Shown here piece after piece: positions 25,276 to 27,783 of a stretch of DNA of 28,085 nucleotides (positions are counted from its first letter, which is position 1; each line of letters opens with the position of its first letter). The translations under genes and the position numbers were made by a program. The DNA comes from Promethearchaeota archaeon (GTDB lineage Archaea; Asgardarchaeota; Lokiarchaeia; Sigyniarchaeales; SOKP01), in NCBI GenBank assembly GCA_048938895.1, contig JBHLLU010000052.1, positions 1 to 28,085 of the forward strand, given 5' to 3'. Below the pieces are notes generated by a model. The model made no database searches. It saw nothing but the letters and a program-made list of their open reading frames with translations, and was not told the DNA's origin.

Positions 25276-25863
25276 CTAAACTTCTAATTTAATTATTAGC
25301 TGTGGGAAAATAAACTTAATTAATTGGCTGAATGAATCTAATACACCGTCCCCTTTTATTGCTGCTGTTTTTGTTAATGATATTTGTTTGAATTTCACAT
25401 AATTAATACATGAAATGAAATCACCTTCTTGTAGCTTCTTCATTCCAGCTAGATCATATTTATTTAATGAGATGACAATGGGGATATTATAGAATTCATT
25501 GCCAAATAATGACTTCAATTCATTCCAAGAACGCAAATTATGGTTCAAAAATTCTTTTTGAGAATCTACAACAAATATTATTCCATCTACTCCATTTAGG
25601 GTTGCAGGTCTTGTACTTGCATAAAAATCTTGACCTGTTGCAGAGTAGACTAAAAATTTTAAGTTCCATTTAGTACCTTTGAACTGTAATACACCAAAAT
25701 CAAAAAATAATGTTCTTCCTACCGTGCTATCAATCGATTTTAACGAATTTTCTTTATTAAAGCAAGAAAATAGAAATTTTACAGAAGTCGTCTTACCAGA
25801 CATAGCTGGTCCATAATACACAATTTTTACCTGTAAAGTTTTATTCTCAAAATCAAATATCAT
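25276..25863 (-). CDS. mglA: MglA-like small GTPase
   Basis: KIVYYGPAMSGKTT, GRTLFFDF, GQDFY, GVDGIIFVVDSQ, NKYD; ATG at 25863 preferred because it avoids overlap with the upstream gene. Confidence 0.92.
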   Translation of the reverse strand: MIFDFENKTLQVKIVYYGPAMSGKTTSVKFLFSCFNKENSLKSIDSTVGRTLFFDFGVLQFKGTKWNLKFLVYSATGQDFYASTRPATLNGVDGIIFVVDSQKEFLNHNLRSWNELKSLFGNEFYNIPIVISLNKYDLAGMKKLQEGDFISCINYVKFKQISLTKTAAIKGDGVLDSFSQLIKFIFPQLIIKLEV

Positions 25864-25871
25864 AATATATC

Positions 25872-26768
25872 CTAACCCCACAATGAAACAATTTTATCAC
25901 CCATAAATGATTTTTTACCATCTTCAATTAGATCTGAAAAATCTTCTCCCCACTCCTTTCTTATAAATGAAACTATCCGATCAATAGGAACTTCTTCATA
26001 ATCAATAGTTTCAAGCAGAGTTTTACTTCCAATTTTTGTATATGCCCCTATATTGTTGAGTAGGTTCAATCTAGATAGGATAAAGAATGCTCGTTTTGAC
26101 CCAGAATAAAAATTTTGTACTTCTCTTTTAAAAATGTTTTTTTTCAATTCACTCTTCTCAATTTCAAAGTCTAATAATGTTTTTACTAAATCTTTATCCA
26201 GTTGATTTGATGTAATTTTATCATTTAACACCCTCTTCATTTTGATTAGTGATTTTTCAGTGTCTTGAGAGATTTTTTTGAAAATATCTTGTTCAAGAGT
26301 TAAATCTAACGATTTTATATTAATATATTCGAATTCAATTAAGTAGTTATTCAAAATGAGAGAAATATAAAGAACACAATGAGTTTTAGTGTTTATAAAT
26401 TCTCTTAATTTTAATAATTCCTCTTTATGTTTTGGTATTACTATTCCAATAAGCCAGGAATCAATATTCTTAAAAGTATTTAAAGCTTTTATAGCCACTT
26501 CACATGGACATCTAATATGTGCTCTTTGATAATTATAATCGATACTTTCATTTGAAATTAAATCTTCATATTCTTCCAAAGATATGAAATCCGTGTAAAA
26601 AACATAATCTCTTCTAAAATGGATAAGCTCAGATAGTTCAATTAAAAAGTTATTTATCTTTTCTTGATCATCCCCTAAAACTATTATTGGAATTCGATCC
26701 AAAAGACAATATAAAATTTGCGAAATATCATCTCTTTTGAATCTATCTAAGATCTTGAAAAAATTCAT
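25872..26768 (-). CDS. Conserved hypothetical protein, putative DENN-like (cDENN-dDENN) domain
   Basis: ISQILYCLLDRIPIIVLGDD...LSELIHF and SWLIGI patterns resemble the cDENN core, followed by a helical C-terminal domain; fold call is by eye only. Confidence 0.5.
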   Translation of the reverse strand: MNFFKILDRFKRDDISQILYCLLDRIPIIVLGDDQEKINNFLIELSELIHFRRDYVFYTDFISLEEYEDLISNESIDYNYQRAHIRCPCEVAIKALNTFKNIDSWLIGIVIPKHKEELLKLREFINTKTHCVLYISLILNNYLIEFEYINIKSLDLTLEQDIFKKISQDTEKSLIKMKRVLNDKITSNQLDKDLVKTLLDFEIEKSELKKNIFKREVQNFYSGSKRAFFILSRLNLLNNIGAYTKIGSKTLLETIDYEEVPIDRIVSFIRKEWGEDFSDLIEDGKKSFMGDKIVSLWG

Positions 26769-26781
26769 GTTTTCACCACTT

Positions 26782-27783
26782 TTATTTAATGATTAATTCT
26801 CCTAACATTCTTTTTATGTCAAAGGATTGTAGATCTTGTATATCAGACGCTTCTTTAATAAGATCGCTAATTTGTTTTGTGAATTTTGGGAGGACTAATC
26901 TGATTAAACCAAGTTTTTGTTTTGCTTTTCCCACAACTGTATTAAAGATAGAGTTTCCTAATCCTTCAATGAATTGAAAAGAATGTTGACAATCAAGTAA
27001 GATGCTTTCAGCATGCATTTTTTTCAATAACCAAGCACAACGGTTAGCTGTTTGAAATAGGGAATAACTCATTGCTGAAGTTTTATCTAATATCTCAGAA
27101 TTTATTTCTAAATTCTTTAGAATTTTGGACGCGATAAAACCCCCTTCAATTGTAACAAAAGCATATTTTAAATCAGGTATGGTGAAAGAAATATTATTTA
27201 AAACTTTTTTTAGCTCTAAAGAGATTGATTTAGAGAAACTTAATGAAAATGGAGATAATTTGAAATTTAGTTCCTCATTTTCTTTAACATTGAATCCTTC
27301 TATTATATTTTGAATCTTTTGACTATTAAATTGAATTAAGGGAGGTTTAAAAGATTCTCCAGAGGTAATCAAACTTGTTTTTATTTTTCTTAAGCATTCA
27401 CTTGTTTGAAGGAATATTCCTCCTAAGTTTATATTAGGTTGTGCGGTAATCGCTATAAAAAATTCATGTTTATCATCTAAAATACCCTGAAGTTCTAAAA
27501 TTCTATTCAATGAATTGTGAACAGGGCTATTTAATGGTGCTATTAAGATTTTTGCTTTTTTCCCTTCTATTAAGATATACTTTAAATCTTTGGGATGTAG
27601 GTGAATACCTACGTTAAAAATAGCACTTGTAGCAGAACTTACGTTAAATATTTCATCTTTTGAAAACCACACTCCTGTTGATTGAATCGGGTTTCCATCT
27701 CGTTGAGTTAAAACAGCATTTTCAACGCCTTTTATTTGTTTTATTTGGTCTAAATGAATCCCAATTTTTTCATTAAGCTGCAT
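26782..27783 (-). CDS. Tandem Roadblock/LC7 (MglB-like) domain protein
   Basis: Two repeats: IKGVENAVLTQRDGNPIQS...YILIEGKK...NINLGGI and IPDLKYAFVTIEGGFIAS...SILLDC...QKLGLIRL; ATG at 27783 (TTG at 27792 possible). Confidence 0.9.
   Translation of the reverse strand: MQLNEKIGIHLDQIKQIKGVENAVLTQRDGNPIQSTGVWFSKDEIFNVSSATSAIFNVGIHLHPKDLKYILIEGKKAKILIAPLNSPVHNSLNRILELQGILDDKHEFFIAITAQPNINLGGIFLQTSECLRKIKTSLITSGESFKPPLIQFNSQKIQNIIEGFNVKENEELNFKLSPFSLSFSKSISLELKKVLNNISFTIPDLKYAFVTIEGGFIASKILKNLEINSEILDKTSAMSYSLFQTANRCAWLLKKMHAESILLDCQHSFQFIEGLGNSIFNTVVGKAKQKLGLIRLVLPKFTKQISDLIKEASDIQDLQSFDIKRMLGELIIK

Follow-up and report, generated by a model that had tools for sequence, protein, structure and literature searches.

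Eukaryotes rely on DENN, longin/Roadblock and small-GTPase parts for their membrane traffic and nutrient signalling, and mutations in these parts cause Birt-Hogg-Dubé syndrome and amyotrophic lateral sclerosis/frontotemporal dementia. In Asgard archaea, an operon of Roadblock, DENN and small-GTPase genes has been predicted to be a folliculin-like guanine nucleotide exchange factor (GEF) module, with a GTPase that is not a Rag, in a 2020 preprint by Liu, Makarova et al. (10.1101/2020.10.19.343400). According to Zhang et al. 2012 (PMC3521125), Rab is contacted by each of the three domains that make up the eukaryotic DENN module, whose longin domain was proposed to derive from MglB-like Roadblock GTPase-activating proteins (GAPs) of MglA-like GTPases. 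MglB Roadblock dimers regulate MglA, and the 2026 Myxococcus paper that describes this (PMC13408092) regards Asgard MglA-MglB pairs as worth testing. Here we describe a three-gene operon on a 28,085-nt stretch of DNA from a Promethearchaeota archaeon (the window), which is the entire contig JBHLLU010000052.1 (C91) of a 4.65-Mb, 174-contig genome with one copy of the operon. The genes very probably encode, in order, a double-Roadblock protein, a DENN-fold protein without a longin domain and an MglA-family small GTPase.

Compared by its textual description, the operon of Liu et al. appears to be the one in the window and agrees with it wherever a check was possible; the operon is real but already known as a computational prediction. 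The suggestion, made also in a first-pass annotation of the window, that such an operon is a prototype of the Rag-Ragulator-FLCN module is likewise not new, as the preprint proposes it for apparently the same operon. No experimental work on the Asgard DENN operon came up in our literature searches. Taking the evidence together, we propose, with a probability of about 0.6, that this previously predicted operon encodes a self-contained small-GTPase switch.

Three minus-strand open reading frames (ORFs) were listed at the locus (27792..26782, 26768..25872 and 25881..25276). Orthologues of the operon genes start mostly at internal ATGs, which makes the gene extents in Table 1 the likely ones. These reproduce exactly the coordinates of the first-pass annotation, which had described three co-oriented genes with gaps of about 8-13 nt: the first gap is 13 nt long (TAA-aagtggtgaaaac-ATG) and includes the Shine-Dalgarno-like word GGTGA, and the second is 8 nt long (TAG-gatatatt-ATG). 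Judged from their sequence relatives and kept order, the three are genuine genes and not chance ORFs. The window is AT-rich throughout (G+C content 24-34% per kb), and the region upstream of the first gene probably holds the operon promoter.

The 195-aa product of the third gene belongs, by sequence comparison, to the MglA family. Its best four PDB sequences are Thermus and Myxococcus MglA (E 9e-25 to 1.2e-24, residues 3-189), with Rab11 as the next family at E 2e-8, a result that bears out the MglA-like GTPase of the first-pass annotation. Pfam matches it to Arf (E 2.5e-11), Ras (5.8e-8) and Gtr1_RagA (1.7e-3), and in an NCBIfam scan the GTPases match the generic small_GTP model alone, below its cut-off. 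The chain has a P-loop of the form GPAMSGKTT, a switch-I RTLFFDF motif with Arg50, SATGQ with Gln78, and NKYD; it has in common with MglA the motifs KIVYYGPxxSGKTT, (G/E)RTLFFDF and Y(S/T)xxGQxFY...GVDGIxFVxDSQ, with its GRTLFFDF aligned to ERTLFFDF and its SATGQ to TVPGQ, such that Arg50 and Gln78 align with the catalytic Arg and Gln of MglA. Twenty orthologues all keep K24, R50, T51, G77, Q78 and N134-K135-x-D137 unchanged. MglA is said to carry a hydroxyl residue instead of the Asp in DxxGQ, reportedly an observation of Miertzschke and colleagues from 2011; the GTPase has this hydroxyl residue together with the switch-I Arg and the switch-II Gln, all of them MglA-type features. Tran et al. 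2024 identify Arg53 of MglA as an intrinsic arginine finger and place a small group of MglA-like GTPases in a cultured Lokiarchaeon. At 195 aa, the chain is too short to include a Roadblock domain behind the G domain, as Rag GTPases do. The MglA-type pairing with a Roadblock gene recurs within the same operon in all 49 non-window loci showing the pair, including one (L051) where the two are directly adjacent. The label “Rab-like” used by Liu et al. for the GTPase therefore seems, from the alignments, less apt than MglA-like. A search with the GTPase alignment (A7) gave 304 loci; among the 80 listed, almost all were Promethearchaeota/Lokiarchaeia metagenome bins with few other labels, the source names of protein relatives being mixed and partly unreliable bin labels.

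For the first gene, Pfam detects one Roadblock/LC7 domain of the two that we assign to it, the N-terminal one, and does so narrowly (Robl_LC7, residues 12-89, E 4.6e-5, 23.5 bits against a cut-off of 23); no NCBIfam model matches the protein. An AlphaFold2 (AF2) model built from 25 sequences with identities down to 23% (predicted local distance difference test, pLDDT, 79; predicted template modelling score, pTM, 0.79) supports two Roadblock domains in one chain, of which the C-terminal one most resembles MglB. Two alpha-beta-beta-alpha-beta-beta-beta-alpha units are predicted at residues 1-140 and 185-314, joined by a low-confidence linker (141-184), and the whole-chain pTM hints at a fixed arrangement of the two. 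In VIA-align structural searches against representative chains, the C-terminal unit matches MglB (3t1r_A, Z 12.4, root-mean-square deviation [rmsd] 1.7 A over 130 residues), Roadblock3 of the cultured Lokiarchaeon (9jue_D, Z 11.9, 23% identity) and Myxococcus MglB (6hjm_A, Z 11.7), while the N-terminal unit is closest to MON1A (9lol_B, Z 9.2), GAF domains (Z 9.0) and the C-terminal Roadblock domain of RagC (6nzd_G, Z 8.9). The double Roadblock that had been read from the letters of the window is thus recovered in the predicted structure. The same search returned no solved tandem Roadblock protein aligning over both halves at low rmsd. Several of the 374 homologues at E<=1e-5 are named by their sources as “Roadblock/LC7/MglB family.”

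The 298-aa product of the middle gene has no Pfam family at E<=1 and no matching NCBIfam model. Its relatives number 386 at E<=1e-3 in a 90%-clustered collection, unnamed and nearly all exactly 298 aa long, with 85 cluster representatives in a 50%-clustered library of 1.84-billion proteins. An AF2 model built on a 43-sequence alignment, with identity down to 21%, has a pLDDT of 88 and a pTM of 0.84, and begins with a cDENN-like alpha/beta domain (1-147), followed by a dDENN-like helical domain (157-273); its tail (284-298) is modelled with low confidence. Among 48,161 chains compared by VIA-align, the six top matches of this model are all DENN-family chains (Z 13.1-10.6): the C-terminal domain of FLCN (6nzd_H, Z 13.1; 3v42_B, Z 13.0, over 186 residues at rmsd 3.4 A, chain positions 346-558), SMCR8 (6lt0_B, Z 11.1), DENND10 (8p0v_M, 11.1), C9orf72 (7o2w_A, 10.8) and DENND1A (6ekk_A, 10.6). 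They cover the model from residue 1 to 274-285, the helical half included, at sequence identities of 8-12%. The aligned ranges of FLCN (346-558), DENND1A (170-366), SMCR8 (708-913) and DENND10 (157-357) all lie C-terminal to the longin domains of these proteins, and in the model the chain begins at the cDENN part, with no N-terminal longin/uDENN domain before it. The earlier by-eye call of a cDENN-dDENN protein lacking uDENN is, in this respect, matched by the predicted fold. Protein-language-model neighbours of the 298-aa protein carry the C9orf72-like, Folliculin_C, SMCR8_C, SPA, Avl9 and DENND11 families. Longer, fused relatives were looked for and none was found, which is weak evidence. 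We conclude that a DENN fold without longin is well supported by prediction, with homology lacking sequence-level proof. Two matches from the profile searches of PDB sequences, Ta0852 (E 0.02) and ferritin (E 0.0026), were set aside as chance-level. The last 15 codons (window 25872-25916) encode a tail predicted to be disordered (pLDDT below 50) in which GDxxxSLWG is conserved in 20 orthologues across families, with W297 invariant; such a conserved disordered SLWG tail would fit a docking peptide, and we regard it as a candidate motif.

Part of the Asgard archaea share this three-gene operon. By tblastn, the genes lie on one strand in the order Roadblock, DENN-like, GTPase in 20/20 loci of other families (L031-L050; 25-53% identity) and in 29/30 loci of the window's own family, window included (28/29 without it), and the synteny survey suggested by the first-pass annotation thereby came out in favor of a kept order and strand. 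Among 301 genomes of the phylum, 165 have the DENN profile and 169 the Roadblock profile, and by family the DENN and Roadblock counts run closely together (57/68 vs 56/68 in the window's family, f1; 74/76 vs 76/76 in f9; 15/19 vs 19/19 in f14), although the genomes sampled are related and the counts are not independent. The same 11 genomes of f1 are without both profiles, and neither profile was found in families f7 (0/28), f24 (0/21), f16 (0/11) and f29 (0/11). These data bear on the notion that the three genes have only been inherited side by side, with no joint function. It draws on the statement of Tran et al. 2024 that, in the cultured Lokiarchaeon, small GTPases and Roadblock proteins are as a rule not encoded in common operons, and on the joint function of the three proteins being itself a deduction; against it stand the gaps of 8-13 nt, an order kept down to about 25% identity over at least ten families, and the joint presence and absence in the 301 genomes, and we consider it extremely improbable.

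How the three proteins might share the work of a switch can be put forward only tentatively, at somewhat less than even odds. The double-Roadblock protein might be a one-chain substitute for the MglB dimer, with the Roadblock platform docking the GTP-bound GTPase and placing Arg50 and Gln78 so that hydrolysis is faster. The GTPase, the Roadblock platform or both might be bound by the DENN-fold protein, which would thereby alter the nucleotide state; it would most likely be an exchange factor or a co-regulator specific to one state, with its SLWG tail possibly involved. Separate Roadblock and DENN chains would in this way do the job of the eukaryotic longin-DENN fusions, and the Roadblock protein might, as the first-pass annotation suggested, supply the longin part in trans. 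A three-chain complex prediction gave a score of 0.01 with the DENN protein as partner, which speaks neither for nor against binding.

Several observations weigh against the proposed switch. The operon GTPase of Liu et al. is “Rab-like” and its Roadblock “LAMTOR1-like”, whereas in the window the GTPase is MglA-like and the Roadblock protein has two domains, with an MglB-like C-terminal one. At the level of sequence, PDB searches of the 298-aa protein with profiles (alignments A1 and A2) returned no DENN protein; Folliculin_C matches 3/43 family members at E<=1 (best 4.8e-4) and 1/44 relatives at E<=0.01, there with 20.2 bits against a Pfam cut-off of 27. Pfam DENN (PF02141) matches 1/43 family members (E 0.093), and neither the 298-aa protein nor the relatives scanned have a match to the Pfam DENN group above a curated cut-off. 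In Foldseek searches against PDB the DENN-fold model found nothing at E<=1e-3; DENND1B, DENND1A and FLCN came at E 0.02-0.06, with several AAA+ proteins ranked above DENND1B (3tw8_C, E 0.024, probability 0.97). Of the two fold searches, Foldseek was the weaker. Further, one genome (G138) carries its Roadblock and GTPase genes next to each other, 25 nt apart (L051:1731-3351), and its DENN gene is solitary on another contig (L030:1504-2400), between membrane-protein genes and a long ORF, which makes DENN separable from the pair. The roles given above are inferred from fold and gene order. The catalytic Arg of folliculin and of SMCR8 is located in the longin domain and not in the part that corresponds to the DENN-fold protein, and a DENN fold alone therefore predicts neither GEF nor GAP activity.

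The AAA+ proteins that head the Foldseek list, along with GspE (2oap_1), FlaI (4ihq_A) and HP0525 (1g6o_A) at Z 10.6-10.1 in VIA-align, could be taken to mean that the 298-aa protein is a degenerate relative of P-loop NTPases of the RecA/GspE/FlaI type, its likeness to DENN arising from a common alpha/beta sandwich. We reject this reading as most improbable. The ATPase matches mostly cover residues 1-150 only, the four longest reaching 215-224, whereas the DENN matches cover 1-275 and rank first; the family has no Walker A motif, with G32 alone conserved in that loop; and the language-model neighbors are all of the DENN group. Moreover, Zhang et al. 2012 (PMC3521125) describe the topology of the DENN core itself as minimal and P-loop-NTPase-like, with no residues for nucleotide binding.

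In a different division of roles, the double Roadblock alone would have GAP and GEF-like activity, and the DENN-fold protein would be a scaffold, or else an effector sensing the GTP-bound form. The separable DENN gene of G138 suggests that the Roadblock-GTPase pair is the core. There is a parallel in Myxococcus, where RomRX is reported to be an effector and not a GEF and MglB to shift between GAP and GEF activity (PMC13408092), and the closest folds, FLCN and SMCR8, come from complexes with the catalytic residue in the longin domain. However, DENND1A/B, which are among the best fold matches, are proven Rab35 GEFs that make contact via cDENN and dDENN (PMC3521125), and the DENN gene lies between the other two in 48/49 fetched non-window loci. 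We hold this alternative to be unlikely, and retain the switch proposed above as the best explanation.

The surroundings of the operon add further observations, with coordinates collected in Table 1. In the window's family and its sister family, a 16S rRNA gene stands head to head with the Roadblock gene on the opposite strand, with its 5' end upstream at a distance of between about 350 nt (in f1) and 640 nt (in f2). A 16S match was found upstream of the operon in 15/18 loci scanned in these two families and in 0/15 loci of other families; at the three loci without a match, the fetched DNA extends upstream from the Roadblock start for 370-660 nt, and in two cases it ends with the contig. The short region between the 16S and Roadblock genes should hold two divergent promoters. 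No rRNA match was found inside the window, whose contig stops 302 nt upstream of the operon; the 16S rRNA gene probably disrupted the assembly there, which would also account for at least 27 other listed contigs that end shortly before the operon. Downstream, and convergent to the operon at 487 nt from its end, lies a second MglA/Arf-like GTPase of 228 aa (Pfam Arf, 9.5e-18), which has TVAGQ, a Ser at the position of the operon GTPase's switch-I Arg (GSTLYFD) and two insertions. It is kept as a neighbor within f1 (78-93% identity over the fetched part in 25/29 near loci) and is 71-87% identical over its full length in L044 and L045; it was not found beside the operon in other families. Farther along are genes for a 341-aa divergent TFIIB-like protein, with matches to a zinc ribbon and a single weak TFIIB repeat, none of which reaches its Pfam cut-off, and for a 118-aa zinc-ribbon protein that matches the eukaryotic Sjogren/scleroderma autoantigen p27 family (PF06677, E 4.6e-13). 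The TFIIB-like gene is in keeping with an archaeal source, and the bin labels of close protein relatives, such as Promethearchaeota and Lokiarchaeota, point to the Asgard archaea.

Table 1. Features of the operon and its surroundings; positions refer to the window unless a locus is named.
Feature	Position	Strand	Basis
Gene 1, double-Roadblock protein, 333 aa	26782..27783	-	ORF from ATG at 27783; Pfam, AF2 model, VIA-align, homologues
Gene 1, alternative start TTG, giving 336 aa	27792	-	ORF list
Gene 2, predicted DENN-fold protein, 298 aa	25872..26768	-	AF2 model and structural matches; Pfam none
Gene 3, MglA-family small GTPase, 195 aa	25276..25863	-	ORF from ATG at 25863; Pfam and PDB sequence matches
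Gene 3, alternative start GTG, giving 201 aa	25881	-	ORF list
AT-rich upstream region, putative promoter	27784..28085 (contig end)	.	sequence
Oligo-T runs directly after the GTPase stop codon, likely archaeal terminator	25200..25275	-	read by eye from sequence
Second MglA/Arf-like GTPase, 228 aa	24102-24788	+	Pfam
Divergent TFIIB-like protein, 341 aa	22421-23446	-	Pfam, below cut-offs
Zinc-ribbon protein, p27 family, 118 aa	21676-22032	+	Pfam
16S matches	L051:1-1384, L041:6562-8057, L042:6354-7844, L044:6273-7234		
16S matches at locus ends	L002, L005, L008, L009, L011, L017, L019, L022, L024, L025, L029		

An operon with Roadblock, DENN and MglA-like proteins on separate chains fits the scenario of Zhang et al. 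2012. A bolder version, which we consider a long shot, is that the operon preserves, in a living organism, the state of the eukaryotic DENN module before its fusion, in which an MglB-type Roadblock and a free cDENN-dDENN would co-regulate an MglA-type GTPase, such MglA-like GTPases and not Rabs or Rags would have been the first clients of DENN, the SLWG tail would act as a docking peptide, and the pairing with the 16S promoter would couple the switch to ribosome synthesis. If this were true, the 16S coupling in the window's order would be a faint parallel to growth control by folliculin, Rag and TOR. The window sharpens the description of the parts and is not a discovery of the operon; what is new here is a GTPase that appears MglA-like and not Rab-like, a Roadblock protein predicted to have two domains in a single chain, the conserved SLWG tail, and the back-to-back 16S gene in the window's order. 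A three-protein archaeal version with one part per chain is a small, tractable system, which could reveal the effect of a bare DENN fold on a GTPase and the origin of the fused eukaryotic modules.

Set beside the described systems, the operon shares with that of Liu et al. its genes for a Roadblock-superfamily protein, a DENN protein and a non-Rag small GTPase, conserved across Asgard lineages; where the preprint speaks of “most Asgard archaea,” our sample has it in 165/301 genomes, and in many families it was not found. With the bacterial MglA/MglB polarity switch of Thermus and Myxococcus, it has in common a GTPase with its own Arg and Gln beside a gene for a Roadblock-fold regulator (at the E of 1e-24 and Z of 12.4 given above), but bacterial MglB is a homodimer of one-domain chains, as against two unlike domains in one chain here, and the window has a DENN-fold gene between the pair, of which none is described for bacterial mglAB in the literature searched. 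The eukaryotic folliculin-FNIP and C9orf72-SMCR8 complexes with Rag-Ragulator likewise bring together a small GTPase, a DENN fold and a platform of the Roadblock type. In contrast to these complexes, the window has one DENN protein and not a heterodimer of two, and this protein is predicted to be without a longin domain and hence without the longin Arg finger; its GTPase, unlike Rag, has no C-terminal Roadblock domain and matches Gtr1_RagA far less well than Arf (E 1.7e-3 vs 2.5e-11). Finally, the Rab35 GEFs DENND1A/B share the cDENN and dDENN fold (Z 10.6 for 6ekk_A, Foldseek probability 0.97 for 3tw8_C) but differ in having a fused N-terminal longin (uDENN) domain and a Rab as client.

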